Assembly: GCA_036704045.1 (NCBI GenBank)
Contig: DATNQM010000011.1
Coordinates: 1 to 56,835 of the forward strand
Direction of reading: 5' to 3'
Length of the DNA: 56,835 nt
DNA from: Halomicronema sp.
Lineage (GTDB): Bacteria; Cyanobacteriota; Cyanobacteriia; Cyanobacteriales; Oscillatoriaceae
Under the pieces are notes generated by a model that was not told the origin of the DNA, made no database searches, and was given only the letters and a program-made list of their open reading frames with translations. Each line of letters starts with the position of its first letter. Positions within the stretch are counted from its first letter, which is position 1. The position numbers and the translations under genes were made by a program. Shown here in pieces: positions 8,198 to 37,659 of the stretch.

Positions 8198-10069
8198 ATG
8201 TGTGGAATTGTTGGTTATATTGGCCCTCGCGCTGCCAGTGAGATTTTATTGGCGGGTTTGGAGAAGTTAGAATACCGGGGTTATGATTCTGCCGGTCTTG
8301 CGACGGTGTGGGAAGGAGAGATTCACTGTGTGCGGGCTAAGGGCAAGTTACATAATTTGCGAGAAAAGCTTTCTGGGATAGAAACACCGGCCCAAATTGG
8401 TATCGGTCATACGCGGTGGGCTACTCATGGAAAGCCAGAGGAGTATAATGCTCACCCCCATATGGATACTCACAAGCGGGTGGCTGTTGTACAAAATGGA
8501 ATTATTGAAAATTATCGTGAGTTGCGGGAACAGTTGAAGGCGAAGGGGCATATTTTTCGCTCGGATACGGATACTGAGGTTATCCCGAATTTGATTGCTG
8601 AGTTTATGGCAAGCGAGGTTTGTTCTTTGGTTGAGGCAGTTCGCTTGGCTGTGAATGAATTGGAAGGTGGTTTTGCAATTGCGGTTTTGTCTGCTGATTA
8701 TCCTGATGAGTTAATTGTGGCAAAACAGCAGGCTCCGATTGTGTTGGGTTTTGGGGAAGGGGAGTTTTTCTGTGCTTCGGATACTCCGGCTTTGGTGCCT
8801 CATACTCGTGCGGTTTTGCCTTTGGAAAATGGCGAGTTGGCGCGGTTAACGCCTTTGGGGATTGAGGTTTATAGTTTTGCTGGGGAACGGTTGAAGAAGT
8901 TTCCTCGGACTTTGAATTGGAATCCGGTTTTGGTAGAGAAGCAGGGCTTTAAGCATTTTATGCTTAAGGAGATTTACGAGCAGCCTGGCGTGGTGCGGGC
9001 TAATTTGGAGGCTTATTTTAATGATGGTTGGCATCCTGGGGGTGAGGGGTTGCCGGTTAAGTTGGGTTTGCCGGATCATTTGTTGGAGGGTTTGGAACAC
9101 GTCCAGGTTTTGGCTTGTGGCACTTCTTGGCACGCTGGTTTGGTTGGTAAGTATTTGATTGAGCAGTTGGCGGGTATTCCGACGATGGTTCAGTATGCGT
9201 CGGAGTTTCGTTATGCACCGTCACCTCTGACTCCTAATACTCTCACAATTGGTATTAGTCAGTCTGGAGAAACGGCGGATACTTTGGCGGCGTTGTCGAT
9301 GGAACAGCAGCGCCGGTTGGGTCAGGATGAGCGGTTTTTGCCTCGTTTACTTGGTATAACAAATCGCACTGAGTCTTCGATGGGTCACTTAGTATCAAAT
9401 ATTATTGATACTTGTGCGGGGATTGAGATCGGGGTGGCGGCGACGAAGACTTTTGTGGCGCAGTTGATGGCATTTTATTGTTTGGCGTTGGATTTGGCGG
9501 CGCGGCGTGGCAGTTTGACGGAAGATAAGATTGCGGAGGTTGTGGAGGGTTTACGGCAGTTGCCGGCTTTGATGGAGCAGGTTTTGGAGAGTCAGGAGCG
9601 CTATATTGAGGAGTTGGCGCATGAGTTTGCGGAGACGAAGGATTTTATTTTTGTGGGGAGGGGGATTAATTTTCCGATTGCTTTGGAGGGTGCTCTGAAG
9701 TTGAAGGAGATTAGTTATATTCATGCGGAGGGGTATCCAGCGGGCGAGATGAAGCATGGGCCGATTGCTTTGTTGGATGCGAAGGTGCCGGTGGTGGCGA
9801 TTGCGATGCCGGGCTGTGTTTATGAGAAGGTGATATCAAATGCTCAGGAGGCTAAGGCGCGGGATTCGATTTTGATTGGGGTGACGCCGGTGGGTGATCA
9901 TGCGGCGGAGATTTTTGATAAGTTGTTGCCGGTGCCGGTGGTGGATGAGGTTTTGTCGCCGGTGTTATCGGTGATTCCGTTACAGTTGTTGGCGTATCAT
10001 ATTGCGGCGCGGCGTGGTTTGGATGTGGATCAGCCGCGTAATTTGGCGAAGTCTGTAACGGTTGAGTAA
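8198..10069 (+). CDS. glmS: glutamine--fructose-6-phosphate aminotransferase (isomerising)
   Basis: MCGIVGY N-terminal amidotransferase nucleophile and two SIS domains, ending …KSVTVE. Confidence 0.95.
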   Translation: MCGIVGYIGPRAASEILLAGLEKLEYRGYDSAGLATVWEGEIHCVRAKGKLHNLREKLSGIETPAQIGIGHTRWATHGKPEEYNAHPHMDTHKRVAVVQNGIIENYRELREQLKAKGHIFRSDTDTEVIPNLIAEFMASEVCSLVEAVRLAVNELEGGFAIAVLSADYPDELIVAKQQAPIVLGFGEGEFFCASDTPALVPHTRAVLPLENGELARLTPLGIEVYSFAGERLKKFPRTLNWNPVLVEKQGFKHFMLKEIYEQPGVVRANLEAYFNDGWHPGGEGLPVKLGLPDHLLEGLEHVQVLACGTSWHAGLVGKYLIEQLAGIPTMVQYASEFRYAPSPLTPNTLTIGISQSGETADTLAALSMEQQRRLGQDERFLPRLLGITNRTESSMGHLVSNIIDTCAGIEIGVAATKTFVAQLMAFYCLALDLAARRGSLTEDKIAEVVEGLRQLPALMEQVLESQERYIEELAHEFAETKDFIFVGRGINFPIALEGALKLKEISYIHAEGYPAGEMKHGPIALLDAKVPVVAIAMPGCVYEKVISNAQEAKARDSILIGVTPVGDHAAEIFDKLLPVPVVDEVLSPVLSVIPLQLLAYHIAARRGLDVDQPRNLAKSVTVE

Positions 10070-11046: not shown

Positions 11047-12993
11047 TTATCTTTTTCCAGCAACTTGTTGAGAATTTAACCTCTCTGGTAAACTTTCCCA
11101 AAAAGGCTTTTCTACCCCATCACGGCGCGTATTTGTGGCACAGTGTGTATTTCCCCGCAATTCTTGATAATATCGGTCATTCAAAAAATACACAGTTAAA
11201 GCACTCGCAGCCACCCGCCGACGAAATTCTTCCTGAGTAAAATCTTTGCCATTAATAATAGCCCCACGAGGATTAGAAACCATTAACCGGCCATTAACCA
11301 CCACCGAATTTACCATATTCGGCCACCAAGAAGACCCACCAAAATCAAACATCGCTGGAACACGAATAATCTGATCATTGGTAAGATTAAATTCTCGCTT
11401 TACTTTCTCTTCAATAGCATTAATATTTTTTGCTTGCAGACGCAAATTATACTCAATTAGGTTTTTGTTTTGGAGGGCAGAACTAACTGTTGTTTGACTA
11501 CTTAAACCACGATTAATCAATTCATTTTTATGACCTTTTTTATCCAAGCTTTTTAACAGCTTAACTCCTTCTTCTGGACTAACAATCATCATTAAAGGTT
11601 TACCTGAAGGTGTAGGAATAAAACTAATAATTTCATCAACGTGACGAATGGCTAACCAAGAAGTATCAATATCAAGGGGTGGCCCTTGAATTTCTTGGGC
11701 TTTTAGAAAGTCTATAACGTCTGGATGAAAAGCAACACTGCCGGCATTTCCGTAATAAATTCTTCCTAAAGAATATCCGGGAATAGGAGGAGTAACTTCT
11801 AAATTTCCAAACCAATCTGTCCACTGATTAAGGGCATCTAAACGACGTGGTTTACCAACTTGAAACCACCCGAAATCTTTACTTAAAAGTGAACGAGGAT
11901 AAAAATCAGAAGCTTGTGGGCGTAGTCCATTTAAAACCACATTAAATTCCCTCATTTTTCCATCTTTTGGAAACTGTACATAACCGATTTCCATTGTGTC
12001 TTGTTTCCAAGTTGTTCCACCGGGAACGACATTAACTTTTGCGCCGGTGGGTGTAATACCGGCCCTGAGTTGGGAAACAAATTCGCGGTTCGCCATACCT
12101 ACATCACTAACATAAAGTTCCTTAACTTTTGCAGTATTAGGTACCATTAACCAAGGAGAAACTCGCATTTCTATAGTATCTTGAGAAACAATTTTATTTT
12201 TTTCTTTGGCAACTGCTTGCAGAGTAACCAAACCGTTCCAGTTACGGTTAGCAAATTGTTTAGCTTCTACGCCTAAAATAAGTTGTTTGGTGTAGGGAAG
12301 TGGTTGGGAACCATCCAGGGTAACGGGAACCCAGCCGCGTGTTGTTTTTTGAAAAACATTAATATAAGGACGGGATTTTGGATCAGCAATTAATGTAACA
12401 ATATTTTTTTGAAATTGTGGTGCAAGTTGGAGGGTAATTTTAGATAAATCTTCTTCATCTTTAGGGCCGTTTACTATTCTATCTTGCCAATCTGGCCGGC
12501 CTTTTTTATCATCATCATCCATGTTAAAAAGGATAAAGGGGCCGGTTTGCCATGTCCAAGTTTTGGTGTCTGTAAAATCGTTATCATCAATTTTGCCATC
12601 ACGGTTGCTGTCGCCAACAAGGGCAAAGTTTTTAGGTTGGATGCGTTGTTTTTCTTGGGTGGGGGTTCGATAGGGTTGGAGGGCGTTTTTTGATGTTGGG
12701 ATGCTGGTGTATTTGGCATAGTCAGCCGCTGTTATGCAACGGTTTTGTGGGATGCCGATTTTGGGGGAAAGGGTTACGCAGGTGGTGGGTGGGGTAACGG
12801 AAAGGGGAGTGTCGGAAAATTCCATACCGGCAAGGGTACCAAAAGCGGTGGTGAGGGCGATCAGAAACCCGCGAAGGTTTTGCCGTAAATTACGGGTGGG
12901 AGGGAGTTTTGGGGGTTGGGGAAATTTGCTTGCATAGATTGGCACGAGGGTGCGGGTTGGGGGTAGAATTGCTTGGGGCCATTGCCGTTGCAT
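11047..12993 (-). CDS. protein-arginine deiminase (vertebrate-type PAD family) homologue with a predicted secretion signal
   Basis: The C-terminal catalytic block aligns by eye with human PAD4: HVDEIISFIP vs HVDEFLSFVP, WPNMVN vs FPNMVN, and RGNTHCATNTRRDGVEKPF vs HGEVHCGTNVRRKPF (catalytic Cys). Asp-rich Ca-site-like segments (DSNRDGKIDDNDFTD, DDDDKKGRPDW) and an Arg-flanked hydrophobic segment (LRGFLIALTTAFGTLAG) ~40 aa into the ORF are also present. Confidence 0.8.
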   Translation of the reverse strand: MQRQWPQAILPPTRTLVPIYASKFPQPPKLPPTRNLRQNLRGFLIALTTAFGTLAGMEFSDTPLSVTPPTTCVTLSPKIGIPQNRCITAADYAKYTSIPTSKNALQPYRTPTQEKQRIQPKNFALVGDSNRDGKIDDNDFTDTKTWTWQTGPFILFNMDDDDKKGRPDWQDRIVNGPKDEEDLSKITLQLAPQFQKNIVTLIADPKSRPYINVFQKTTRGWVPVTLDGSQPLPYTKQLILGVEAKQFANRNWNGLVTLQAVAKEKNKIVSQDTIEMRVSPWLMVPNTAKVKELYVSDVGMANREFVSQLRAGITPTGAKVNVVPGGTTWKQDTMEIGYVQFPKDGKMREFNVVLNGLRPQASDFYPRSLLSKDFGWFQVGKPRRLDALNQWTDWFGNLEVTPPIPGYSLGRIYYGNAGSVAFHPDVIDFLKAQEIQGPPLDIDTSWLAIRHVDEIISFIPTPSGKPLMMIVSPEEGVKLLKSLDKKGHKNELINRGLSSQTTVSSALQNKNLIEYNLRLQAKNINAIEEKVKREFNLTNDQIIRVPAMFDFGGSSWWPNMVNSVVVNGRLMVSNPRGAIINGKDFTQEEFRRRVAASALTVYFLNDRYYQELRGNTHCATNTRRDGVEKPFWESLPERLNSQQVAGKR

Positions 12994-20282: not shown

Positions 20283-22112
20283 TTAATTTTCACCCTTACC
20301 GGCCCGCAATTTATCAGTCAATTTATGCCAAATATTCACTGTTTTATCCTTACTTCCGCTTACAATAATTTCCGATAAACTACTGGCTGCTACCGCACAA
20401 ATTGAATCCGAATGCCTGCTCAAATTATCCAATTCTTCCCCCGTGTTTACTTGCCATAACTTCACTGTTTTATCCCAACTTCCGCTAATTAAAATTTCAC
20501 TATTTCCCATAAAAGCGAGCGAAACTACCGTCCAAGAATGACCAGAAATAGTCCGTATTAAATTGCCTGATTCTACATCCCATAACTTAATGGTTTTATC
20601 ATCACTGCCGGTTGCCAAAATCTTACTATCACTACTAAAAGCTACTGCAAAAACCGGCCAAATATGATCTCTTAAAACATACCGCAACTCTCCCTTCATA
20701 TCCCATATCCGAATTGTCCTATCAAAACTCCCACTTGCTAACCATTTCCCATTCGGTGAAAACGCCACAGCCGTCACCTGTAAATTATGCTTTAAAATAC
20801 CAATTTCTGCCTTTTTATTAATATCCCAAAGTCTAATTGTTTTATCCCAACTCCCACTAGCCAAAATCTCTCCTTGTGGATGAAAGGCAACACTTTTGAC
20901 TGCATGAGAATGTCCTGTAAAAGAATGCAATTCTTCCCAGGTTTCCAAGTCGTAAATCTTTACGGTTTTATCATCACTTCCCGAAGCCATCAACCGGCCA
21001 TCAAGACTAAACGCAACTGTCTTAACAAAATTACTATGAGAATGTATTATATTCAATAATTCATAAGAATTTAAATCCCACAAACGAATCTTATTATCAT
21101 CACTTACAACCGCCAAAATAACACCCTTTGTATCAATCGCAACCCCATTAACCGGCCCAGAAAAATCGCCCAAAGTTTGTCGGCATTCCCAGAGAGAATT
21201 TTTAACCCCAGATAAACTCTTATCAACAAATATAGAATACTCTTCATTTGTATTTATCTGCTTCCATTTGTGGTTTTTCTTAACCTCTTCTATTACCGCA
21301 TCCACCGACAAAAACCGGTTCTTCAAAGAGTTTTCTACCAACTTATCCAAAACCTCCCCCAAACCCTCACTTACTTTTGTGAGCAAATAATATCTCCACA
21401 CCCAACAATTGCTTCCCACATCAAATAATTGAAACGGAGAAATACCCGTCAAAAAATATAGACAACACGCGCCCAAACTATAAAGATCGCTATAAAAAGC
21501 AAGACTTCCTTTTACCTGTTCAGGGGCCATAAATTCTGCACTTCCCCCCAAAAAGTTTTTTTGCCCACATCGCACCAAACCATCAACCAAAACCACATCA
21601 ATATCTCCCCCTAGACTCCTTAGTGTAGACTCACTACCGCTGCATTTCTCAACACTAGAGAGTGAGCTAAAAATCAAATTTTCCGGCTTAATATCCCCAT
21701 GAATCAATCCCTGATCATGAAGAACTTTTAATTGAGGCAGAACCTCCGTTAACAACTGCCAAATATCATCCTCATTAAAATTTCCCTCCTCCTTCATTAC
21801 CTCCGCTAAATTTCTGCCCGCAATAAATTCCTCAACCCAATAAAAACACTGCTCATCATAGAAAAAATCTAAAAACTGCGGTTTATTTCTATACCTTTTT
21901 AAACTTTTTAGCCGTAAAGATTTTTCCAAAAAACCATTTCTTTCTTTCTCAAAATCATCTCCAGATAAACCTTGACAATTTAATTCTTTAATCACACAAA
22001 AAAGCGCCGGATATTTACTTTCATCCCGCGCTAAAAACGTCCGAATTTCAAAAAACATAACATTATAAGGTGAGCTATTCTCAACATTTAGAAGTCGGTG
22101 GGCATTGCCCAC
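20283..22112 (-). CDS. Ser/Thr protein kinase (divergent, non-RD) fused to a seven-bladed WD40 repeat domain
   Basis: Catalytic loop HGDIKPENL and APE motif, with about seven WD repeats (GH…WD units) at the C-terminus. No GxGxxG glycine loop is recognisable. The ORF-track start is a GTG inside a hairpin. Confidence 0.85.
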   Translation of the reverse strand: MGNAHRLLNVENSSPYNVMFFEIRTFLARDESKYPALFCVIKELNCQGLSGDDFEKERNGFLEKSLRLKSLKRYRNKPQFLDFFYDEQCFYWVEEFIAGRNLAEVMKEEGNFNEDDIWQLLTEVLPQLKVLHDQGLIHGDIKPENLIFSSLSSVEKCSGSESTLRSLGGDIDVVLVDGLVRCGQKNFLGGSAEFMAPEQVKGSLAFYSDLYSLGACCLYFLTGISPFQLFDVGSNCWVWRYYLLTKVSEGLGEVLDKLVENSLKNRFLSVDAVIEEVKKNHKWKQINTNEEYSIFVDKSLSGVKNSLWECRQTLGDFSGPVNGVAIDTKGVILAVVSDDNKIRLWDLNSYELLNIIHSHSNFVKTVAFSLDGRLMASGSDDKTVKIYDLETWEELHSFTGHSHAVKSVAFHPQGEILASGSWDKTIRLWDINKKAEIGILKHNLQVTAVAFSPNGKWLASGSFDRTIRIWDMKGELRYVLRDHIWPVFAVAFSSDSKILATGSDDKTIKLWDVESGNLIRTISGHSWTVVSLAFMGNSEILISGSWDKTVKLWQVNTGEELDNLSRHSDSICAVAASSLSEIIVSGSKDKTVNIWHKLTDKLRAGKGEN

Positions 22113-22117
22113 CTTAC
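22097..22117. repeat. Palindromic element GGTGGGC-ATT-GCCCACC-TTAC overlapping the annotated GTG start of the kinase gene
   Basis: Second copy of the 21-nt element seen at 15174. The stem covers the GTG at 22110-22112 and sits immediately after the flotillin stop codon. Confidence 0.6.
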
Positions 22118-22120
22118 ATT

Positions 22121-24298
22121 TTACACAATGCCATTTTGACTGAGAGGCGTTTTAACGAAATTCCCAGAAATGGGCGGAATAACTGGCGGCAAATTGCTAT
22201 CAGAAACTACAGACTCAACAACAGAGTTTTCTGTTTCTTTTTGAGGTGTTGGAATTTGTTTACCGGCTTGGTTCCATAAAATCATCGCCAATAAACCATC
22301 AACTAAACCATTACTCGAACCATTATTTCCCCCCACCAAAACATCAGGAATTAAACGCACATTGCGCTCACCAATAATCTGCATAATTTGCATCGCCGTG
22401 TACGCATTTTCACCCAAAGCTTCAACACCTGCACGATAAGTTTCTGCCTTAGCATTCCCCGTAGCGCGGATACCTTCAGCCTCACCTGTTGCCCGCAACT
22501 TAATACCTTCAGCCTCACCTGTTGCCTGTTGAATTTGCGCCGATGCCTTCAATTCAGCAATTTTCACACTTTGTTCAGACTTCACCATTTCCTGCTGAAT
22601 TTCTGCTAAAGCTGTCTCCCTCACAAGTTGCTGCCGTTGTGTTTGAGCCATTTGTTGAACTTCAAAAGTTTTGCGTTGTTCCTCCGCAATTTTTCGCTCA
22701 GTTTGTGTTTTCATTAACTCTGGCGGCGGTTCAATTTCGCCAATCAAAGTATCAATTGCTTGGACATCATAACAACGTAGTGCCGCCTTAATATATTCTG
22801 CCGCCTCCGCCTGACGTTCACTGCGAGCACTTAAGAAATCTAAAACCGTATAATCTTGAGCAGAATTACGGAAATAATTGCCAATTGTAGGCTCTAAAAC
22901 ATGATCTACCAAATTTTGCATCGCCCCTACTCGCGAAATCACTTTTGGTGCATCCAAAGCCCCCACATGAATAATTTGTGCCACCTGCAAATCAAAAGCA
23001 AAACCATCTTTTGAACGCACCACCAAAGACGCTAATTTAGTATCATAATTATGTCTCTCTGTACGCCCTGACCAATTTAAAACAATATTTGTTGTCGGCA
23101 CTAATTCTATTTTCATTACACGGGTATTAATAGGATGTTTGCCGGGATAAAGTGGCTCTGTCCACACTCCTTTATGTCCTGGCTTAACCAAATCTCCATG
23201 AGTAAAAGAAGCCCCACTTACGTCTTCATGGGGTTTGCCTACATAAGATATAACTACACCCACATAACCAATCGGAATTTCTGTCATTGCCACTTGCTCA
23301 ACTTGAGCAAACCAAGGATTTAAATTCCAAGAACCTGACAGTAAAACCTGTTGTTGTAAACCTCGGCTACCACAATTTTGAATAAACTTTTGCCCATTTT
23401 GAAAATTATCATGATTCCCAATTACCGCTCCAGCAATTTCTCCAGCTTCAATAGAAACCCCATCTAAAGTTGTTACAATTCCAACCTTATCTGGTGCCAC
23501 CGTATAAACTTGTAATCTTTCGGGAGAAATTCCACTTTTTGTAGCATTACTAGCGGTTATTACGGTAAATAATGCTGTATTAATTCGATAAGTTCCTGCT
23601 GTTAAAAACCCAATTTGCCGGCCTTTTTCTCCCCCATTAGTCAAAAATTTTCTGGCATCTTGAAAATTTTCACAATCAACTACTTTGCCCAGAATTCTTT
23701 CGGCAGGAATTGAATCACCATCTGCGGCCACAAGCAAAGCAATTTCTCCCTGGGGAACTACAATTACCGGCTCTTTTTTAACTTCATATTGCCAAGGCCA
23801 ATAACCCCAATGCCACCCAGGTGCTAAGGTATCTGCTTGATAACCAGCTTCGCCATTTAAAGCAATTAATCTACCGGCCGGTAAACTACGAGTTGAGAAT
23901 TTTTTAGCAACAATTCCCACCTCTCTTTCACTAATAATCACAAGGCCGGTTGCTGAAGCAAAAATCAAAATTCCCCCACCTAAAACTAAGGGAACCAATA
24001 ACCATCCCCAGTTATTTCCCATTTCCACCACTTGATATGGAGAAGTGAAATTTTGCAGTTGAGCCACTTCAACCGCTGTTAATTTTTTTTGAGGTTGCTG
24101 TTTAGACAATAAATTTTCAATTCTCGTTTCAACTTTTGCTGAAGTCTTTTTTCCTTCACCAGCAACCGCCGGCATTGTCGTTAATACAGCTATGGTTGCT
24201 ACCAGGCTGGCAGCAAAGCTTACTCTTTTAAGATCCCGACCTTTATTTTCCTTCTTCCGTAAATTTTTCATAAAATAATTTATTCCTTTCAGACCCAT
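22121..24298 (-). CDS. long flotillin/SPFH (band 7) family membrane protein
   Basis: Two N-terminal hydrophobic segments, an SPFH-type start (ISEREVGIVAKKF), and a flotillin-like Glu/Ala-rich C-terminal coiled coil with ATGEAEGIKLRATGEAEGIRATGNA repeats. Its 725-aa length is comparable to long cyanobacterial flotillins. Confidence 0.55.
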   Translation of the reverse strand: MGLKGINYFMKNLRKKENKGRDLKRVSFAASLVATIAVLTTMPAVAGEGKKTSAKVETRIENLLSKQQPQKKLTAVEVAQLQNFTSPYQVVEMGNNWGWLLVPLVLGGGILIFASATGLVIISEREVGIVAKKFSTRSLPAGRLIALNGEAGYQADTLAPGWHWGYWPWQYEVKKEPVIVVPQGEIALLVAADGDSIPAERILGKVVDCENFQDARKFLTNGGEKGRQIGFLTAGTYRINTALFTVITASNATKSGISPERLQVYTVAPDKVGIVTTLDGVSIEAGEIAGAVIGNHDNFQNGQKFIQNCGSRGLQQQVLLSGSWNLNPWFAQVEQVAMTEIPIGYVGVVISYVGKPHEDVSGASFTHGDLVKPGHKGVWTEPLYPGKHPINTRVMKIELVPTTNIVLNWSGRTERHNYDTKLASLVVRSKDGFAFDLQVAQIIHVGALDAPKVISRVGAMQNLVDHVLEPTIGNYFRNSAQDYTVLDFLSARSERQAEAAEYIKAALRCYDVQAIDTLIGEIEPPPELMKTQTERKIAEEQRKTFEVQQMAQTQRQQLVRETALAEIQQEMVKSEQSVKIAELKASAQIQQATGEAEGIKLRATGEAEGIRATGNAKAETYRAGVEALGENAYTAMQIMQIIGERNVRLIPDVLVGGNNGSSNGLVDGLLAMILWNQAGKQIPTPQKETENSVVESVVSDSNLPPVIPPISGNFVKTPLSQNGIV

Positions 24299-24558
24299 AG
24301 GACAACACTAACATTTTTGCAACTAACTTTAGAGGTATTTATAATTTTTTAATCTAGGTATAAAAGTTGCCAAACTATCATAATTAAAAGAGAAAGTCTT
24401 AAAAAGCAACAAAAACGGACTCCTAACGTCTCTAAATAAACCTTCTTTGACAAATTTCCTTACTACCAGCAATATTTTTGCTATAGGTACGGTAGTTGCG
24501 AAATCTTACCGCAAATTAGTGTATTTTCTCAGTGTGTCATTCTAACCACCAAAAAACT

Positions 24559-24900
24559 ATGAGTCATCGAGTAAAAGTCCTAGAGCCATCAGGAATATTA
24601 GACGCTACACAAGCAGAAAATTTTGACCAACAAATTATTAATGTCATTCAAGAGGGAGCCGATATTGTTTTAATTGATTTGCAAGATGTTAAATTTATGG
24701 ATAGTTCTGGTTTGCGACTAATAGTTTCTGCCTATAAAACTGTCAAAGCCGCTAACCTAAAATTTTTTCTGTGTTCGTTAAATCACCAAGCAAAAATGAT
24801 TTGCGAACTATCGGGAATTAATAAACTTTTAGACATATTCCCTGACCGGCAATCCTTTAGTCAAGCCATAAATTCTGTAGAACAACTGGCTCAAGAATAG
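24559..24900 (+). CDS. STAS-domain anti-sigma-factor antagonist (SpoIIAA/RsbV-like)
   Basis: ~113-aa single STAS fold with the conserved phosphorylatable serine in FMDSSGL. The ATG at 24559 is preferred over the upstream GTG of the ORF track (24532). Confidence 0.85.
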   Translation: MSHRVKVLEPSGILDATQAENFDQQIINVIQEGADIVLIDLQDVKFMDSSGLRLIVSAYKTVKAANLKFFLCSLNHQAKMICELSGINKLLDIFPDRQSFSQAINSVEQLAQE

Positions 24901-25066
24901 TTAGGATAGGGACGGGTTTACTATAAAGGTTTGTAACAGTATAAGCTCTGTAACTTTATAAAAAACGTGTATAAACCCGCCCCTACAAAATATTTATTTC
25001 CTCCAAGCCTTCATCGATATTTATATATTTTTGATTTTAAAAAACTCAGCTATAGCAAACAATTAT

Positions 25067-27463
25067 CTAAAAACTAATCTGAAGCCAAGATACATCATCA
25101 TCAAAAGTTTCTTTAGTATTATCATTTTGCACTTCAGTTAAAAACTCATTCAGAGTAATTTCTTTTTCTAAACTCCGACTTTGTAGCCAATTGATAAAAA
25201 TATCAAAACTCCAAACCACTCCATCTGGGTGTTCAAATTCATAAATTCCATCACTAAAAATGTAAAGACTACTTCCAGGTGCGACTTCACACTCCGCATT
25301 AGTATAATTAACATTTGGTAACAGCCCAATCGGTAGACATCCAGGGATTCTTAGTTCTTGCAAACCTGTAAAATTGCCGTTATCTTTAGCAATTAAAACT
25401 GCCGGTGGATGGCCAGCACTTGAATAAATAAGCCGATTAGTTAAACGATTATAAACACCATACCAAATTGTAAAATACATATTACCATGCTTATCCATTT
25501 GAAAAGTCTGGTTAAGCGCTTCTAAAACATCACTAGGCGAATAATAATTAGTTTGTAAACCCGAACCTGATCGCAACAAATTTAATACAGATACGGACAA
25601 CAAAGCTGAACCTAAACCATGACCAGAAACATCAATTAAATAAACTGCTAAATGATCCCGGTCTAACCAATCATAACCAAAACTATCACCGCCCAACTTT
25701 TTAGAAGGAATAAACAACCAATCAATCGCCACCGGCCCGCGCATAGGACGAGGTAAAAGCGAACGCACATATTTCGCAGCTTCCTCCAACTCAGCCTCTA
25801 GTGCCGCCTGGATAAGCTGTCTTTGCTGCAACTCGGCTTGCAAAGCCGCCTCAGCACGCTTGCGCTGAGTAATATCAATTCCTACAAAAACTGCCGCTTC
25901 ATCCCCCAACCAATTCCACTTTTTAGCCAACACAGCATGACTAGGAGAACCCTCCACTTCTGCATCAATTTCTAAAGAAGCTTCACTGGCAGAACTTGCA
26001 AAAAATTCTTTTACAAATTGACCAAATTTTGATTGATGAAACCCTACTTCTCGATTTACAAAAGCCTCTTGAGGCATATTATAAATTGTCGCTAAATGTC
26101 GGTTAACACCCAAATAGCGCATATTAGAACTAATCAAAGAAACTGCCCCAGGTACAGCATCCAAAACCGTTTGCAGCAATTCCTTTGCCATTTGAATTGT
26201 TGCTTCCGACTGCTTCCGAGTTGTTACATCTCTGACAAATCCTTCAACACCCACAGGCCGGCCAGATGAATCTAGCCGCAAAATTAAAGTTTGAGACACC
26301 CAAATTTCACAACCATTGCGCCAAGCCAAAACCTCTTGCTGCCGCAATTCTCCTTCAATTTCTAACTGTTTAATACAGTTTTGCCAGAAACTTGTCTCCG
26401 CATAAAGTTGGCTAATATTTTCCACACATTCTAAAAATTGTTTTGGCGACTCATAACCAAAAATTCGTGACAAAGCAGTATTCGCGGTACAAAATTGACC
26501 ATCCAAAGTCACTTGAAATAAACCTTCATCAGTCCGTTCTAAAATTTGCCGGTATTTGCGAGAAGTCACGTTACGAAAAATCCACCGACTCAATCTTTCA
26601 CCGGCTTCAACACGGCAATCAATATTCCCTTCTACCCACACTGCATCGCCATTTTTGCTAACAAAAATTAACTCAATACCCTCTATGGTTTTGCCCTGGC
26701 GCAACTTTTCTAACAGCCAAAGTTGACGACTTTCAGGATGCAGTACATCCCACAACCACATTTTTTCAATTTCGGCATCATCGTAACCCAAAGTGGAACG
26801 CCAAGTTTGATTAACCGACATTAATTTGCCATCAGATAACCGCACACTTTGAATCACCACATTAGCCCGATCCAAAAAATTGTGTAAATGCGCTTGGGTT
26901 GTTTCCATTTGTCGCAATTGCCGGCGTGAATCCATCAACGCCATCACCTGACGCCCCAACATTTTTAACATTTCTTGCTGTTGTGAACCTAACTCACGGG
27001 GTTTGTAATCTATTACACACAACATCCCCAGCGATAAACCATCCCCCGTAATCAAAGGTACACCGGCATAAAACCGCACATAAGGAGGGCCAATAACCAA
27101 AGGATGCTCCGCAAACACACTATCCTGCAAAGCATCCCTAATAATAAATAAATCATTAGACAAAATTCCATGAGAGCAAAAAGCCAATTGTCGGCGCATG
27201 GAACCCTTAGACCAGCCAAACTTTGCCTTTAACCATTGACGCTCAGTATCGATCAAACTCATCAAAGCTGTAGGAGTAGCGCATATTTGGGCTGCTAACC
27301 TCACCAAATCATCAAAACTCGATTCTGGGGCTGTATCCAAAATATGATACTGCCTCAGTGTTTCAATTCTCAAAGCTTCGTTAGACGGCAATGGTGCTTG
27401 GCTCATTGCGACACGAGCGGTTGTCACGGAGTTTACCATTTTTATAGTCACACCAGCAGCCAA
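25067..27463 (-). CDS. GAF-PAS sensor fused to a PP2C/SpoIIE-type serine phosphatase (RsbU/IcfG-like)
   Basis: N-terminal GAF (…YHILDTAPESSFDDLVRLAA…GVPLITGDG…), central PAS-like repeats, and a C-terminal SpoIIE/PP2C domain (GGDSFGYDWL…YLIDVSGHGLGSALLS…IFSDGIYE). Confidence 0.85.
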   Translation of the reverse strand: MAAGVTIKMVNSVTTARVAMSQAPLPSNEALRIETLRQYHILDTAPESSFDDLVRLAAQICATPTALMSLIDTERQWLKAKFGWSKGSMRRQLAFCSHGILSNDLFIIRDALQDSVFAEHPLVIGPPYVRFYAGVPLITGDGLSLGMLCVIDYKPRELGSQQQEMLKMLGRQVMALMDSRRQLRQMETTQAHLHNFLDRANVVIQSVRLSDGKLMSVNQTWRSTLGYDDAEIEKMWLWDVLHPESRQLWLLEKLRQGKTIEGIELIFVSKNGDAVWVEGNIDCRVEAGERLSRWIFRNVTSRKYRQILERTDEGLFQVTLDGQFCTANTALSRIFGYESPKQFLECVENISQLYAETSFWQNCIKQLEIEGELRQQEVLAWRNGCEIWVSQTLILRLDSSGRPVGVEGFVRDVTTRKQSEATIQMAKELLQTVLDAVPGAVSLISSNMRYLGVNRHLATIYNMPQEAFVNREVGFHQSKFGQFVKEFFASSASEASLEIDAEVEGSPSHAVLAKKWNWLGDEAAVFVGIDITQRKRAEAALQAELQQRQLIQAALEAELEEAAKYVRSLLPRPMRGPVAIDWLFIPSKKLGGDSFGYDWLDRDHLAVYLIDVSGHGLGSALLSVSVLNLLRSGSGLQTNYYSPSDVLEALNQTFQMDKHGNMYFTIWYGVYNRLTNRLIYSSAGHPPAVLIAKDNGNFTGLQELRIPGCLPIGLLPNVNYTNAECEVAPGSSLYIFSDGIYEFEHPDGVVWSFDIFINWLQSRSLEKEITLNEFLTEVQNDNTKETFDDDVSWLQISF

Positions 27464-27596
27464 TTTTAAAATAAAAGTAGATGCTTTTATACATCTAAAT
27501 TTATATCATGAGCTTACCAAATCCCCCTGTAGGAATATTTTATTGTTAGCAAAGAAAAAGATATTTTTATTTGTCAAATAACCCTTACTTTTGGGT

Positions 27597-28106
27597 TTAC
27601 TCACAATCAAAATTCTTTCGCATAAGCAAACAATTACGCTCATCAGCCCCTCGACTATATTCAAGGTGATCAGTCAATTTTTTCATAAAAATAAGTCCTC
27701 GACCACCTTCTTTTTGAAGCGGATCCATAGGAGGATTATCCAAAATCTCTTGAAGTTTGGCCGAAAAATCAAAGGGCTGACCGTAATCCCAAATGCGTAT
27801 TTCTAAATACTTAGCAAAAACTTTGACCTCTAATTCAATAGGCGTATGGGACGGCAAGTTTTTGTGGGCGTGGCGGACAGCATTAGTGAATCCTTCCACC
27901 AAAGCTGTTTGACACTTCCACCAAACATTGGCCTCCATAGGAGACTGATTGAATTGTTCAAACCACTCCAAAACCTTCTCGACATCTTTAATATTTGTCG
28001 AAACCTTAAGCTGTGATTGCTTAAAGTGTGGCTGAGTTTCAGGCGTTTGTTTTTTTTCTGGTGAGGTCTTGTCTTTCCACCAACTGCCAAAATTTTCTAA
28101 CATCAT
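27597..28106 (-). CDS. HATPase_c anti-sigma regulatory factor-type Ser kinase (RsbW/SpoIIAB-like)
   Basis: 169 aa with an N-box-like ALVEGFTNAVRHAH and a G-box GGRGLIFMKKL, the size and order typical of RsbW-class kinases. It is adjacent and co-oriented with the STAS-fusion and PP2C genes. Confidence 0.75.
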   Translation of the reverse strand: MMLENFGSWWKDKTSPEKKQTPETQPHFKQSQLKVSTNIKDVEKVLEWFEQFNQSPMEANVWWKCQTALVEGFTNAVRHAHKNLPSHTPIELEVKVFAKYLEIRIWDYGQPFDFSAKLQEILDNPPMDPLQKEGGRGLIFMKKLTDHLEYSRGADERNCLLMRKNFDCE

Positions 28107-28210
28107 CTTCTATGTAGGAGAAGAATGAAATTGCCGTTCATCAAGTCCACCCTGCATCAAAAAGCAGATTACCAATGCTTTGAGAAAGTGTGTACTTTTC
28201 CAGTATCCAC

Positions 28211-29212
28211 TTACATTGCACCGCTATTTTTGCGGAACAAAACCAAAATAGTTTTAACTATTAGCTTTAAGTCATAAATTAAACTCCAATTTTTTTGATA
28301 TTGCAGATCCATTTTGATGACATCTTCAAATTTGGTGATTTTTGACCGGCCATTGACCTGCCACTCACCAGTCATCCCTGGTTTAACATCCAAGCGCTGC
28401 CACTCAGGAACCTCGTAACGCTCTACCTCATCGGGAGTAGGGGGTCGAGTACCCACTAAACTCATATCACCTTTGAGAACGTTTAAAAATTGGGGTAATT
28501 CATCCAAACTTGTCCGCCGTAAAAACCGGCCAACTTTAGTAATTCGGGGGTCATTATCATTTTTAAACAAAGGCCCTTCAACTTTGTTCTCAACTTGAGA
28601 TTTCAAAGCCTCGGCATTGGTACACATTGATCGCAACTTCCACAGCCGAAAACGGCGGCCCATCCAACCGCAGCGAATTTGACTGAAAAAAATCGGCCCC
28701 GGACTATCAAGTTTAATTGCAATACCAATAGGGATCAAGAGTATCGCAGTGATCCCCAACCCTACGATAGCCCCGATTACATCAAGGAATCGTTTTACCC
28801 AAGACCTTACTGAGGGGTGGGTGGTGGGCAATTGATTTTCGACGCGATTTTTCCGGTCAGTCGCTAGGGGTGGAGACCCGGATCTTTCGACTGTTAGTAC
28901 CTGATCTAGGCCGGTGATCGATAGCACAGCCATCACTTGCGGTTGCACGTTTCGCAACACGAGATCAATGCCTTTTTGTTGGGCTGTCCGCACGTTGTTA
29001 ACCAACGCACCCACAGCACTGCTGTCCATAAAAACCGTCTGACTGAAATCTAGCACCAGCTTAGTAGGTGGCGGAACGGCCACAAAAAGCTGTTGACAAG
29101 TTTCCTTAAATGCTACTGCTTCCAGAACACTCAGACGGGTCGGTAGTTGTACCACTGGCATTTCTTCAGAAAAAGAAACCCGAAAGTTGGCATCTTGGGG
29201 TTGGCTAACCAT
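28211..29212 (-). CDS. STAS domain fused to a monotopic phosphoglycosyl transferase (PglC/WbaP-C-type bacterial sugar transferase)
   Basis: aa ~15-110 form a STAS fold with the conserved FMDSSAVGAL serine. aa ~140-333 carry one re-entrant hydrophobic helix (VIGAIVGLGITAILLIPIGIAIKL), PIFFSQIRCG, KLRSM, the catalytic DE dyad in RRTSLDELPQFLNVLKGDMSLVGTRPP, and VKPGMTGEWQV. Confidence 0.8.
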   Translation of the reverse strand: MVSQPQDANFRVSFSEEMPVVQLPTRLSVLEAVAFKETCQQLFVAVPPPTKLVLDFSQTVFMDSSAVGALVNNVRTAQQKGIDLVLRNVQPQVMAVLSITGLDQVLTVERSGSPPLATDRKNRVENQLPTTHPSVRSWVKRFLDVIGAIVGLGITAILLIPIGIAIKLDSPGPIFFSQIRCGWMGRRFRLWKLRSMCTNAEALKSQVENKVEGPLFKNDNDPRITKVGRFLRRTSLDELPQFLNVLKGDMSLVGTRPPTPDEVERYEVPEWQRLDVKPGMTGEWQVNGRSKITKFEDVIKMDLQYQKNWSLIYDLKLIVKTILVLFRKNSGAM

Positions 29213-29448
29213 ATAACCCTGATACTTTTCGTTACTGTTGAAGGAGAAAAAAATTTTAAACGGAAAATATTAGTGATGTTTGTTTGGCAATCGTAACTTA
29301 TTTAAGAACCTTTGAGCAATGATACTTTCGTGTATTTACACAAACTTGTTTATTTTAGAACCTTCAGGCACTCTTAATCCTATACACCAAGGCTGTCAGG
29401 TACGAATAATGGGAACTTGGCTTGCTTAACATAATTTAAAATTTACCT

Positions 29449-29474
29449 AAAAAAAGCCAGCCAGTAAAGGCTGG
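29449..29474 (-). terminator. Intrinsic terminator downstream of the 143-aa gene (minus-strand CCAGCC-loop-GGCTGG then T7)
   Basis: 6-bp stem followed, on the minus strand, by a T7 run about 50 nt after the stop codon at 29526. Confidence 0.45.
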
Positions 29475-29525
29475 AGACAATCAGGTTTCACTACCCTATC
29501 TGTTAAGAGTTGGGGCGTGAAGACA

Positions 29526-29957
29526 CTAATCGAGCATTTCGTCTTCTACTGGCGGGTGGGGAAAAATTTTACCCATCATAAATTGAGGAGTGTTTTGATC
29601 AGATTGTTCGGTTGAATCAGAACAATCTACGGGTTCATGCTTTGGCCCTACACAAATCGCCGTTTGGCCTACACCGGCCATTATTTCTGTAACTTGGCCA
29701 ATAATAGTTTCAATGCGTTCGATCAATTGTTCCGCCACTTCTAAATTAGGCGCAACAATAAAAAAAGTTTTCAACCCCAAAGGACTAGGAGCAAAACCAA
29801 AATTACAATCTTCTAACAGCCGTTGTGTTGAATTGTCAAAAGAATCACACAATCGCTGCAATAAAGTTTGATAGAAGCTCTCAGCTAGTCTGCGGTCATC
29901 AAATCCAGGTTTAAACAACATGGCAAGTCCCTCCTCGGACTTTTTTTGCCATAACAA
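29526..29957 (-). CDS. hypothetical protein
   Basis: 143-aa ORF, co-oriented and immediately upstream of the STAS-sugar-transferase operon but separated from it by its own terminator. I recognise no domain. Confidence 0.5.
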   Translation of the reverse strand: MLWQKKSEEGLAMLFKPGFDDRRLAESFYQTLLQRLCDSFDNSTQRLLEDCNFGFAPSPLGLKTFFIVAPNLEVAEQLIERIETIIGQVTEIMAGVGQTAICVGPKHEPVDCSDSTEQSDQNTPQFMMGKIFPHPPVEDEMLD

Positions 29958-30313
29958 ATTCTTGTATTCTTAGTGTGAGCCCTAAAACTAGCCCAGACAG
30001 TGATGAAAGTCGATGTGGCAATGTGATAATCATCTTCTTTCCCAGTGATGAGTCTATAGCAAAAGCTGTGACTGTTGGTGACCATTTTTGTGATCTGGAT
30101 CGCCATCACTTTTAGCCATCAGTTAGCGGTTATTTTGTGTAGTAAACTACAATAAATACCGCCAAAGTTGTCACTACAAGAGATTATACCCATTTAAACC
30201 TCCAAAAATACAACTTTGGATAGATGTCAGAGAACTATTATTAAACTAACCAAAAAAACACAGAACTTGTTTGCTTGGTTCTTTTATATATTAACTTGAT
30301 AACTACCCTAAAA

Positions 30314-31771
30314 TTACAAACGGCGCCACAGAAAAAAAAACCTTTCTAAGAACCCCTGCAAACCCAGATTCCTAGCATAATTTTGTTTGGTTAACTGCAA
30401 AGCTGCCTTAGAACTAACCTCAGAAAGAGTAGGGTAAACGTGAATCATACTAGTCAAAGCAGAAACCTTTAATTTATGGGTCATTGCCAAAACAATCTCA
30501 TGCAATAACTCACCCGCCCTCGTTCCTACCAAATGGGCCCCTAAAATTTCTCCATTTTTGCGGGTAATAATCTTGACAAAACCCTCTTTATGTGATTCTG
30601 CTATAGCCCGGTCTACACCGGCAAACTCTTGTTTAAGCACACAAACCTGATCCCTATACAAAACACGCGCCTCAGCCTCTGTCATCCCCACACTTGCTAA
30701 TTCAGGCTGTGTAAACGTTGCCCTTGGCATGACGCGATAATTTCTGCGCCACACCGGCAAAAACAAAGCATTTTTCAACACCACTTGGGCTTCATAGCTG
30801 GCAGCATGAGTAAAACGATACCCGCCAATCACATCCCCACAAGCATAAATTTTTCGATTACTCGTTTGTAATTTATCATTAACAACAATTCCATCCCTGC
30901 CCACATCCACCCCCGCTGCTGGCAAATTTAGCAATTCTACATTAGGAAGCCGACCGGCAGCGACGAGAATTTCCTCAACTTTTGCCAATTGATTTTGCCC
31001 ACTCCAAATAACTTTTTCTCCCCGCTTTTCTTTAACCCGATTAACTTGCGTATTTTTGAAAATCTCAATACCTTCTGCTTGTAATTGAGTTTCCACAACT
31101 TCGGCTGCTTCCCAATCTTCTTTAGCTAAAATTTGCTTAGTTTTAGCAATTAAAGTAACCTGAGAACCTAAACGAGCAAAAGCTTGTCCCAATTCACAGC
31201 CCATCGGCCCCGCCCCAATCACAGTAATACTTTTCGGGAGTTTATTTAATGAAAAAACTTCCTTATTTGTCAAATATCCACACTCTTTTAATCCTTCAAT
31301 TTCAGGAATAAAAGGACGGGAACCGGTGGCAATTACAAAAGCACGCGCCGTGAGAATTTTATTATTAACAGTAAATTGGTGAGGGCTAATAAACTCTCCC
31401 TGACCAAAAATAACTTCTACGCCTAAACTTTCAAAACGTGTTGGTGAATCGTGGGGTTCAATAGTAGCAATAGCTTGTTCAATATGGCCGATAACTTTGG
31501 CAAAATCAATCTCTAAATTTTGGTAATTTATGCCAAACTGGCCGCTATTTTTCACCTTATAAGCAATATCGGCAGCGTGTAGTAAAGATTTACTTGGCAC
31601 ACAACCGTACCACAAACAGTCGCCTCCCAGTCGTTCGCTTTCCACCAAAGCAACTTTTGCTTTCAGTTGAGCCGCAGCGCTTGCTACTACTAAACCGCCA
31701 GATCCGCCACCAATAATTACTAAATCATATTCTTTAGCCACGAGTTCACCTATTCGCGATAGAGGATACAA
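30314..31771 (-). CDS. class I pyridine nucleotide-disulfide oxidoreductase (dihydrolipoamide dehydrogenase / MerA-like family)
   Basis: FAD-binding GGGSGG, redox-active disulfide GGDCLWYGCVPSK, an NAD-binding GAGPMGCE, and a C-terminal dimerisation domain with the HxxxxE region (HVYPTLSE). Confidence 0.8.
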   Translation of the reverse strand: MYPLSRIGELVAKEYDLVIIGGGSGGLVVASAAAQLKAKVALVESERLGGDCLWYGCVPSKSLLHAADIAYKVKNSGQFGINYQNLEIDFAKVIGHIEQAIATIEPHDSPTRFESLGVEVIFGQGEFISPHQFTVNNKILTARAFVIATGSRPFIPEIEGLKECGYLTNKEVFSLNKLPKSITVIGAGPMGCELGQAFARLGSQVTLIAKTKQILAKEDWEAAEVVETQLQAEGIEIFKNTQVNRVKEKRGEKVIWSGQNQLAKVEEILVAAGRLPNVELLNLPAAGVDVGRDGIVVNDKLQTSNRKIYACGDVIGGYRFTHAASYEAQVVLKNALFLPVWRRNYRVMPRATFTQPELASVGMTEAEARVLYRDQVCVLKQEFAGVDRAIAESHKEGFVKIITRKNGEILGAHLVGTRAGELLHEIVLAMTHKLKVSALTSMIHVYPTLSEVSSKAALQLTKQNYARNLGLQGFLERFFFLWRRL

Positions 31772-36492: not shown

Positions 36493-37659
36493 TCAAACAG
36501 ACTCAAGATTAGTAATTGGCAAAGCCAAACAATCTTTGAGACACCAAACGACTTGAGTTTGCTCATCGGCGGTAAGTTCTGGGAACATGGGCAACGATAA
36601 CACCTCATTAGCCAATTGTTCACAAACCGGCAAAGCGCCTGGTTTGTAGCCCAAGGATTCATAAACCGGCTGTAGGTGTAATGGCATTGGATAATAAACC
36701 ATTGTACTCACCCCCCTATCTTGTAGCCGATCCCGTAGCCAGTTGCGGTAATCACCGCTATTCATAGGGTTATGACTTTGGTTCTGAACTCGGATTGTAT
36801 ATTGGTTCCAAACACTGGTACCACCGGCAATTTCTTGAGGACGAATTACACATTTAACCGGCAATAATAACTCATCATAAAACCTCTGCACTTTCCGCCG
36901 TTGATTGTTCCAGCTATCGAGATGACGAAGTTTGATTTGTAAAATTGCTGCTTGTAGGGCATCTAGGCGGCTGTTAACACCAATTTCTTCATAGTGGTAG
37001 CGCTTACTTTGACCATGTTCTTTCAAAACGCGCACACGGGCTGCAATGGCTGGATCGTTGGTTGTCACTGCGCCACCGTCACCACAGGCACCTAAGTTTT
37101 TAGTAGGGAAAAAGCTAAAACAACCAATATGACCGATACTACCAACTCTACGTCCTTGCCAAACAGCACCGGTGGCTTGGGCGCAATCTTCAATGACTGC
37201 CAAATTATAGCGACCGGCAATTTCTGTTAACCGCGTCATATCCACCGGCTGACCAAACAAATGCACTGGAATAATGGCTTTTGTTTTTTCTGTGCAGGCA
37301 GCCGCAACCGCATCCAGGTCAAGATTGTAGGTATGCTTGTCAATATCGACAAAAACCGGTGTTGCTCCTACTGCGGAAATTACCTCAGCAGTAGCAAAAA
37401 AAGTAAAAGAGGTTGTAATGACTTCATCACCTGGGCCAATATCTAAGGCTCGCAGGGCCAAATAAAGCGCATCGGTGCCGGAGTTGCAAGCAATACATTC
37501 ACTTACTCCAACAAATTCTCCAAATTGCTGTTCAAATTCTGCCACAACTGGCCCGCCAATATAGCGTCCAGAGGCCAACAGTTCCAGCACAGCTTGACCA
37601 ACTTCGGAGGAGATGGTCTGGTATTGTTGGGCTAGGTCAAGGGGGGGGATCTTCTTCAC
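36493..37659 (-). CDS. DegT/DnrJ/EryC1/StrS-family PLP-dependent sugar aminotransferase
   Basis: ACNSGTDALYLAL, FSFFPTKNLGACGDGG (PLP lysine region), and the family-typical ~380-aa length. Confidence 0.9.
   Translation of the reverse strand: MKKIPPLDLAQQYQTISSEVGQAVLELLASGRYIGGPVVAEFEQQFGEFVGVSECIACNSGTDALYLALRALDIGPGDEVITTSFTFFATAEVISAVGATPVFVDIDKHTYNLDLDAVAAACTEKTKAIIPVHLFGQPVDMTRLTEIAGRYNLAVIEDCAQATGAVWQGRRVGSIGHIGCFSFFPTKNLGACGDGGAVTTNDPAIAARVRVLKEHGQSKRYHYEEIGVNSRLDALQAAILQIKLRHLDSWNNQRRKVQRFYDELLLPVKCVIRPQEIAGGTSVWNQYTIRVQNQSHNPMNSGDYRNWLRDRLQDRGVSTMVYYPMPLHLQPVYESLGYKPGALPVCEQLANEVLSLPMFPELTADEQTQVVWCLKDCLALPITNLESV

Follow-up and report, generated by a model that had tools for sequence, protein, structure and literature searches.

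The gene at positions 28211..29212 on the minus strand of a 56,835-nucleotide stretch of cyanobacterial DNA (Halomicronema sp., contig DATNQM010000011.1 of assembly GCA_036704045.1; this whole stretch is hereafter the window) encodes a protein of 333 amino acids, STAS-PGT, in which a STAS domain is fused to the catalytic domain of a monotopic phosphoglycosyl transferase (monoPGT). Our interpretation, which we regard as quite probable, is that STAS-PGT is a membrane-associated initiating transferase carrying a cytoplasmic STAS phospho-switch on a linker, and that it is turned off by the kinase and on by the phosphatase encoded beside it. The idea of a STAS phospho-switch on an initiating phosphoglycosyl transferase (PGT) is already in print: it was published in 2026 for an orthologue of 68% identity, All4160 of Anabaena (Nostoc) sp. 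PCC 7120, by Harada, Matsuoka and Ehira (bioRxiv, April 2026, 10.64898/2026.04.08.717354; Molecular Microbiology, June 2026, PMC13555669).

Each polysaccharide repeat unit that is begun ties up polyprenyl phosphate and nucleotide sugars, both of which are scarce (PMC12802240). The post-translational gating of this step is only beginning to be understood, and the STAS-PGT fusion is one answer to how it may be done. To the published account the locus adds a cassette, found in Oscillatoriales, in which the genes for enzyme, kinase, sensor phosphatase and a further STAS protein are neighbours, together with a sensory input that is not that of the Anabaena phosphatase HenR. Further additions are the possibility that the second STAS competes for the kinase, triple fusions in which another glycosyltransferase is joined to the enzyme, a D-X16-P variant of the membrane helix, and an argument that the STAS domain is cytoplasmic.

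A STAS domain fused to a phosphoglycosyl transferase

The open reading frame (ORF) begins with ATG, runs in a single frame and exactly fills the interval. An earlier, model-made reading of the letters without database searches (the sequence-only reading) had quoted a set of motifs, and all of these are found in the 333-residue product: FMDSSAVGAL at residues 61-70, KLRSM at 192-196, SLDELPQ at 235-241, TRPP at 255-258 and VKPGMTGEWQV at 276-286. Pfam assigns residues 16-109 to STAS (PF01740, 56.2 bits against a cut-off of 22.6, E 3.4e-15) and residues 140-326 to Bac_transf (PF02397, 220.7 bits against a cut-off of 27, E 1.3e-65), the latter match covering positions 1-178 of the 179 in the profile. 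The NCBIfam model TIGR00377 (anti-sigma-factor antagonist) matches with 60 bits, its cut-off being 53.45, and there are partial matches to the exopolysaccharide, WcaJ and WbaP polyprenyl glycosylphosphotransferase families.

The same reading had proposed that a STAS domain is joined to a PGT, and this is borne out by Pfam, NCBIfam, AlphaFold2 with Foldseek, and the orthologues, 235 of which were aligned as full-length matches (315-356 residues; identity 63-81% in the non-redundant set and as high as 98% for the nearest). All 235 have the same two-domain architecture, which rules out an artefact of gene fusion, gene calling or assembly. As to the survey of the domain pair that it suggested, at least 16 of the 150 nearest representatives of clusters at 50% identity bear a STAS domain, and a cyanobacterial spread has been published: in an InterPro-based account, proteins with STAS and Bac_transf domains are widespread in cyanobacteria and rare elsewhere, XssP and All2285 being named (PMC13555669). 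No mention of STAS occurs in the 2024 PNAS survey of the monoPGT superfamily. One 68%-identical STAS-PGT (P0067) carries the label of an Actinomycetota metagenome bin; it resembles cyanobacterial proteins so closely that an error of binning seems likelier than a true occurrence outside cyanobacteria.

The catalytic domain (residues 140-326, 28235..28795 on the minus strand, with the D237-E238 dyad at 28499..28504) is by sequence nearer to the hexose-1-phosphate transferases WbaP and WcaJ than to PglC, as judged by phmmer (E 3.6e-40 for WbaP versus 1.2e-29 for PglC); in Foldseek the C-terminal part of the model matches both PglC and WbaP. The catalytic residues listed for PglC, D93-E94, K59, R88 and R111 (PMC12802240), correspond to D237-E238, K192, R232 and R256 of STAS-PGT and also align with WbaP. 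They are invariant across the 84 to 235 orthologues that could be compared, the dyad being present in all 235. As read from the alignments, then, STAS-PGT carries the complete catalytic set of a monoPGT, and it is predicted to transfer a sugar 1-phosphate to polyprenyl phosphate. The PglC-type core claimed in the sequence-only reading therefore stands as to its catalytic motifs and dyad, which are invariant, and is doubtful as to the re-entrant helix, where D-X12-P is replaced by D-X16-P and the modelled helix is unbroken; the sequence is moreover nearer to WbaP. The absence of a WbaP-type membrane bundle, also part of that reading, holds: because the sole hydrophobic segment of the protein is residues 142-166, the four-helix bundle of WbaP-type enzymes is absent.

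Two kinds of divergent relative were seen. Three divergent STAS-PGT proteins (P0126, P0130 and P0131) have the Asp-Glu dyad replaced by D-A, H-K and E-A, respectively, and keep the STAS acceptor serine; on these residues they may be inactive as enzymes and purely regulatory. Three others (P0122, P0123 and P0127) are three-domain fusions with a second glycosyltransferase, of WecG/TagA type or Alg13/14-like, ahead of the STAS-PGT portion, so that STAS lies between two consecutive pathway enzymes.

A STAS domain with a predicted acceptor serine

Residues 11-110 (28883..29182 on the minus strand) are modelled by AlphaFold2 as a STAS fold with pLDDT 86-96. Foldseek places this part closest to TM1442 (1VC1), SpoIIAA (1TH8) and RsbV (6M36), with TM scores of 0.73-0.85 and root mean square deviations of 1.9-2.7 Å; RsbS (TM 0.7-0.85, all such matches taken together) and the STAS domains of SLC26 proteins are matched as well. 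The STAS fold of the sequence-only reading is thus upheld by AlphaFold2 and by the Foldseek matches to SpoIIAA and RsbV, and a different alpha/beta fold is not supported.

The candidate acceptor is Ser64, in D63-S64-S65, with its codon at 29021..29023 on the minus strand. By phmmer against the sequences of the Protein Data Bank (PDB), FMD-S64-S is in register with FMD-S58-S of SpoIIAA, so the register that the sequence-only reading had assumed is the right one. It aligns also with the FMD-A-S variant chain of 1TID, in which alanine stands at the position of Ser64. In the AlphaFold2 model a helix starts at residue 64, matching the Ser58 site of SpoIIAA at the start of helix 2. D63, S64 and G68 are invariant in 235 of 235 orthologues, and the acceptor serine is kept in XssP and in the divergent STAS-bearing cluster representatives that align over the region. 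Taken together, these data support Ser64 as the canonical acceptor site of a STAS domain of the phosphorylatable, SpoIIAA/RsbV type, and phosphorylation of Ser64 is predicted.

It might be argued that the domain is instead a non-phosphorylated module for ligand binding or assembly, as in SulP/SLC26 transporters, and serves in targeting, oligomerisation or nucleotide binding. The STAS domains of transporters are not phosphorylated, and STAS-PGT does show a weak match to sulP (TIGR00815, E 0.0016) beside the Foldseek matches to SLC26. We nevertheless consider this explanation very improbable: the best matches by both sequence and fold are phosphorylatable anti-sigma antagonists, the D-S-S-x-x-G context does not vary, genes for a kinase and a phosphatase lie alongside, and the orthologue All4160 is phosphorylated in vitro.

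The orthologue All4160

STAS-PGT and All4160 (P0523, BAB75859.1, 351 residues) align over their full length with 68% identity in 343 aligned columns (E 8e-178). They share the two-domain architecture, and residue 74 of All4160, the first serine of its FMDSS and the published S74, is aligned with Ser64. Two kinases, Alr3423 and All2284, bind the STAS domain of All4160 and phosphorylate Ser74 in vitro; the kinase that acts in vivo in Anabaena was found by screening, and HenR could not be expressed (PMC13555669). All4160 is regulated by a serine kinase of the HATPase_c_2 family and by a PP2C phosphatase of SpoIIE type. The S74A form of All4160 makes up for loss of the PP2C phosphatase HenR, deletion of alr3423 suppresses the henR defect, and the henR mutant still induces hepA and hepB, transcription not being lowered (PMC13555669). 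The genetics indicate that phosphorylation turns All4160 off and that the PP2C phosphatase is needed to turn it on (PMC13555669).

The control of an initiating glycosyltransferase by a phospho-switch STAS domain, as the sequence-only reading had put it, therefore finds support from three sides: the invariant acceptor serine, the kinase and PP2C genes that adjoin STAS-PGT, and the experiments on Ser74 of All4160.

The closest relatives of STAS-PGT are from Ancylothrix, Microcoleus and Oscillatoria, the protein of Ancylothrix sp. C2 (Microcoleaceae) being 94% identical. These genera are not known to form heterocysts, and STAS-PGT is, by sequence comparison, the closest counterpart of All4160 in a lineage without known heterocysts. 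This differs from the setting of All4160, which is needed for the heterocyst envelope polysaccharide, in that the loci most like the STAS-PGT cassette come from non-heterocystous genera. Going by its locus, the same switch is present in non-heterocystous filamentous cyanobacteria, which suggests a common ancestry for the enzyme of the heterocyst envelope and a polysaccharide switch of more general use.

Kinase, phosphatase and a second STAS protein are encoded alongside

The neighbouring genes, which the sequence-only reading had passed over, are the strongest evidence for the switch. The gene that follows STAS-PGT, 104 nt downstream (27597..28106 on the minus strand, 169 residues), encodes a serine protein kinase like RsbW and SpoIIAB (HATPase_c_2, E 1.2e-24). 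Its kinase boxes align with those of Bacillus subtilis RsbW (6M36): the N box as EGFTNAVRHA from residue 71, G1 as DYGQPFD from 107 and G2 as EGGRGL from 133. The names Alr3423, All2284 and HmpW do not occur as labels among its 120 best matches. After a further gap of about 130-160 nt, on the same strand, comes a 798-residue ORF (25067..27463; probable start at the ATG at 27439) for a sensor phosphatase, in which Pfam finds GAF, PAS and SpoIIE in the order GAF-PAS-PAS-PP2C (SpoIIE/RsbU type) and no receiver domain. Its phosphatase motifs are GGD from residue 591, DVSGHG from 611, SDG from 737 and DDDV from 788. The order on the minus strand is therefore PGT gene, kinase, phosphatase. From the adjacency we infer that kinase and phosphatase are the cognate pair for STAS-PGT.

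Converging on the phosphatase gene from the plus strand is a gene for a stand-alone STAS protein (24559..24900, 113 residues from its ATG) with an FMD-S49-S-G motif. It matches Pfam STAS with 71.9 bits (E 4.4e-20) and TIGR00377 with 72.8 bits. A recent duplication of the STAS domain of the PGT was considered as its source and is ruled out, there being no significant BLASTP similarity between the two. One kinase/phosphatase pair may thus serve two STAS clients.

How far this arrangement is conserved was read from a scan of one genome per species, which returned 396 relatives; the best 80 loci were compared, all of them labelled as cyanobacteria or unclassified metagenome bins. The kinase gene directly follows the PGT gene in 14 of these 80, under the labels Microcoleus, Oscillatoria, Oscillatoriaceae, Laspinema, Phormidium, Coleofasciculus or unclassified. 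A GAF/PAS-PP2C gene comes next in 12 of the 14, and 11 of those 12 also have the convergent stand-alone STAS gene, placed and oriented as here. Among the best 80, every locus named as a Nostocales genus lacks the kinase, the phosphatase and the stand-alone STAS within 8 kb.

Counting L082, the adjacency of PGT and kinase was found in 15 loci (the 14 and this one). L082 (Microcoleus, 4456-7868) and L009 (Coleofasciculus, 8001-10904) show a second arrangement, in which the PGT gene, there encoding a protein 69% identical to STAS-PGT, is followed by a 145-residue kinase and a GT4 glycosyltransferase, while phosphatase and stand-alone STAS are missing from the vicinity. Because the pair is retained in two different downstream contexts, we take PGT and kinase to be the conserved core of the locus, and the two contexts argue for a functional link between them.

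There are two explanations under which these genes would not control the enzyme. The first is that kinase and phosphatase serve mainly the stand-alone STAS protein, the STAS domain of the PGT being a bystander or a membrane docking site whose own phosphorylation is not regulatory. The stand-alone protein has the higher STAS score (71.9 versus 56.2 bits) and a textbook FMDSSG motif, and it is syntenic with the phosphatase in the 11 related loci. However, the PGT-kinase pair persists without phosphatase and stand-alone STAS in L009, L010 and L082, Ser64 of the PGT is invariant throughout the orthologues, and the equivalent serine of All4160 is a kinase substrate in vitro whose mutation gives a phenotype. 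We hold this explanation to be unlikely.

The second is a classical transcriptional partner switch, in which the kinase would be an anti-sigma factor, both STAS domains its antagonists and gene expression the output, leaving PGT activity unchanged. The composition of the trio, STAS, HATPase_c_2 and PP2C, is that of RsbV/RsbW/RsbU and SpoIIAA/SpoIIAB/SpoIIE, the source annotation of the protein reads 'anti-sigma factor antagonist', and a conventional stand-alone STAS lies in the same cassette. Yet a scan of 43 ORFs of the window against Pfam found no sigma-70-family domain and hence no sigma-factor gene, one encoded elsewhere being possible. In Anabaena, as described above, the henR mutant still induces hepA and hepB, and the non-phosphorylatable enzyme alone rescues the defect. 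The fusion of STAS to PGT has also been kept through many subfamilies, including those with an extra glycosyltransferase, which speaks for coupling at the level of the enzyme. For these reasons we think it improbable that transcription is the output here, and prefer direct control of STAS-PGT by its neighbours.

Membrane association and topology

The only hydrophobic, membrane-associated helix of STAS-PGT spans residues 138-169 (28706..28801 on the minus strand) and contains K140-R141, D144 and P161. Hydropathy gives a single hydrophobic segment, residues 142-166, and the charges flanking the helix are +3/0 on the N-terminal side and +7/-1 on the C-terminal side. P161 is invariant among the aligned orthologues. 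A D-X12-P motif that kinks the re-entrant helix is said to be strictly conserved in monoPGTs (PMC12802240). STAS-PGT has in its place D144-X16-P161 (28730..28783 on the minus strand), a spacing that is invariant in 234 orthologues and is shared by 15 of the 16 cluster representatives that bear STAS. When the 150 nearest representatives are tallied, the spacing is X19 in 58, X16 in 28, X15 in 26 and X12 in about 25. On these alignments the D-X12-P rule fails for this whole branch of the family. AlphaFold2, given either the full-length protein or the catalytic domain only, draws an unbroken helix of 32-35 residues (135-169 or 138-169) with no break at P161, and a re-entrant geometry of PglC type, if the helix has it, would be predicted from homology only.

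These observations bear on whether the segment crosses the membrane. Were it a true transmembrane helix, STAS would lie outside the cytoplasm, a concern voiced in the All4160 preprint. The length and hydrophobicity of residues 142-166 would suffice to cross a bilayer, the D-X12-P spacing is lost, and both AlphaFold2 models show one straight helix. Several features nevertheless make such a topology hard to credit. Neither the kinase nor the stand-alone STAS has a hydrophobic segment, and the highest hydropathy window of the phosphatase is borderline and lies inside its GAF domain. Phosphorylation requires ATP, which is cytoplasmic. By inspection the N-terminus is unlike a signal peptide, and the helix is flanked by strongly basic residues on both sides; P161, as noted, is invariant.

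The three-domain fusion P0122 is a further point against a transmembrane segment, as the same helix with the same motif is there the only hydrophobic segment between the WecG-type glycosyltransferase and the PGT domain. WecG-type glycosyltransferase and PGT domains act at the cytoplasmic face with cytoplasmic nucleotide sugars. Because of the single hydrophobic segment with its basic flanks on both sides, the lack of a hydrophobic segment in the kinase and the stand-alone STAS, and the architecture of P0122, we conclude that the helix very likely does not span the membrane and that the STAS domain is very likely cytoplasmic. A STAS domain outside the cytoplasm strikes us as extremely unlikely.

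A proposed mechanism, and what weighs against it

Under the interpretation that we favour, the RsbW-like kinase encoded downstream would phosphorylate Ser64 and thereby turn the enzyme off. The GAF-PAS-PAS-PP2C phosphatase would strip the phosphate when its GAF and PAS domains sense a signal, and so turn the enzyme on. Polysaccharide synthesis would in this way be gated post-translationally, at its first committed step and without a sigma factor. We infer that the timing of polysaccharide initiation is governed by the GAF/PAS region of the phosphatase. The sign of the switch, with the phosphoserine form inactive, is taken by orthology from the genetics of All4160.

Phospho-STAS might inhibit the enzyme in several ways: by covering the active site, by breaking a contact that activates the enzyme, by controlling oligomerisation, or through phosphoserine acting as a pseudo-substrate. 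The two domains are joined by a linker (residues 113-136, 28805..28876 on the minus strand) that is predicted to be flexible, with pLDDT below 50. Its length and sequence differ among orthologues, and a T-H-P-S-V-R-S motif is conserved at its end, P129, T131, H132, S134 and S137 being invariant. On this tether phosphorylated Ser64 could plug the basic, phosphate-binding active site as a pseudo-substrate. The full-length AlphaFold2 model, built with an 84-sequence alignment, was inspected for packing of STAS over the active site and contains no confident interface between STAS and PGT domains (pTM 0.47).

A number of points tell against our interpretation. The case for STAS-PGT is built on sequence, models and data from an orthologue rather than on biochemistry with STAS-PGT. 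The evidence from All4160 consists of phosphorylation in vitro and genetics, and does not extend to phosphorylation in vivo, direct dephosphorylation by HenR or activity in vitro (PMC13555669). The sign of the switch is borrowed from a heterocyst-forming lineage in which HenR is a receiver-PP2C protein and the regulators are unlinked to the All4160 gene. The AlphaFold2 model, with its pTM of 0.47, offers no confident contact through which STAS would act on the PGT. The canonical D-X12-P is replaced by D-X16-P, and both models show the helix of 32-35 residues unbroken; the All4160 preprint (10.64898/2026.04.08.717354) takes the corresponding segment as a possible transmembrane helix, with STAS perhaps outside the cell, and in the published paper (PMC13555669) the words 'topology' and 'transmembrane' are absent. 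The PGT, kinase and phosphatase genes are spaced by 104 and about 130-160 nt, and the cassette is known from gene order. Finally, the stand-alone STAS could be the main substrate of the kinase.

The second STAS protein also allows a more elaborate circuit, which we entertain tentatively and believe rather less likely to be right than wrong. Here the kinase would choose between the stand-alone STAS and the STAS domain of the PGT, the enzyme itself being the partner that is switched. Kept unphosphorylated by the phosphatase, the stand-alone STAS would act as a decoy that sequesters the kinase and so protects the PGT from inactivation; heterocyst formers would have taken this circuit apart and connected it anew to HenR. 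If this were true, polysaccharide initiation would respond to the GAF/PAS signal sharply, in a threshold-like manner. The cassette is a cleaner system for reconstitution than Anabaena.

Comparison with known systems

Within the monoPGT family, STAS-PGT resembles both PglC of Campylobacter, a small monoPGT, and the large WbaP and WcaJ in catalytic fold, in catalytic residues and in the single membrane-associated helix at the N-terminus of the catalytic domain. Unlike the WbaP type it lacks the four-helix bundle and the DUF domain, and unlike the PglC type it is not a bare catalytic domain, having STAS prepended, and its helix is D-X16-P rather than D-X12-P.

The regulatory genes resemble the SpoIIAA-SpoIIAB-SpoIIE and RsbV-RsbW-RsbU systems of Bacillus in the three protein types, in the position of the acceptor serine and in the kinase boxes. 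They differ from these partner switches in that there is no sigma factor in the window, that the predicted output is an enzyme fused to STAS, and that two STAS-bearing proteins are encoded in the one cassette.

Control of an initiating monoPGT after translation, through a phosphorylation-dependent signalling protein, is also known from EpsW-EpsZ of Myxococcus xanthus (PMC12802240) and CapB-CapM of Staphylococcus aureus. EpsW, unlike the fused STAS described here, is a protein of its own with a receiver domain, and in its phosphorylated state it activates a large, dimeric PGT. CapM is phosphorylated on tyrosine and activated, whereas in STAS-PGT the residue would be serine and the phosphorylated form, by orthology, inactive.

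Among cyanobacterial systems, the Hmp proteins of Nostoc punctiforme (HmpU, HmpV and HmpW) tie a STAS protein, a kinase and a PP2C phosphatase to polysaccharide secretion and motility, their target being not known; HmpV is a stand-alone STAS, unlike the fused STAS of STAS-PGT. In Anabaena, kinase and phosphatase genes are not adjacent to that of All4160, whereas STAS-PGT and the 11 related loci form one cassette that includes a stand-alone STAS. The inputs differ as well, HenR having a receiver domain and the phosphatase of the STAS-PGT locus GAF-PAS-PAS, and so does the product, but the logic of regulation may be shared. The gene of All2285 of Anabaena, another protein with STAS and Bac_transf domains, which belongs to a paralogous subfamily, adjoins the candidate kinase gene all2284, like the PGT-kinase pair here.

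XssP of Synechocystis PCC 6803 (a gene of the sll5052 region on pSYSM) belongs likewise to a paralogous subfamily; it is 51% identical to STAS-PGT, keeps the acceptor serine and is the priming transferase for the sulfated polysaccharide synechan. Its gene lies inside a complete Wzx/Wzy cluster under two-component control with no kinase within 4 kb on either side, whereas STAS-PGT has no surrounding cluster: among the 43 window ORFs scanned against Pfam, no Wzx, Wzy, PCP or other glycosyltransferase gene forming a polysaccharide cluster was found around it.

Other features of the window

The surroundings of STAS-PGT are ordinary chromosomal genes, the nearest sugar-related ones being a DegT aminotransferase (36493..37659) and GlmS (8198..10069). 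An Rfam scan of 24300..30400 for riboswitches or other RNA elements returned nothing at E up to 1. Scans for promoters and terminators stayed at background level except for one terminator-like hairpin with a T run (29457..29474 on the minus strand), found by a consensus scan between the PGT gene and the ORF upstream of it; as weak evidence, it suggests that the PGT gene begins its own transcription unit.

That upstream ORF (29526..29957 on the minus strand, 143 residues) has no family match. Its position directly before the PGT gene is kept in six loci of Microcoleus/Oscillatoria type (L001-L006), even where the Band7/WD40 genes have moved. The latter genes lie at 20283..24298 on the minus strand of the window and encode a 725-residue SPFH/Band 7 protein followed by a 609-residue WD40-repeat protein. 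In L002-L004 the pair is on the other side of the PGT cassette, and therefore moves as a unit. Further along the minus strand, at 11047..12993, is a gene for a 648-residue protein matching protein-arginine deiminase (PAD and PAD_M, E 2e-67), a family best known from animals.

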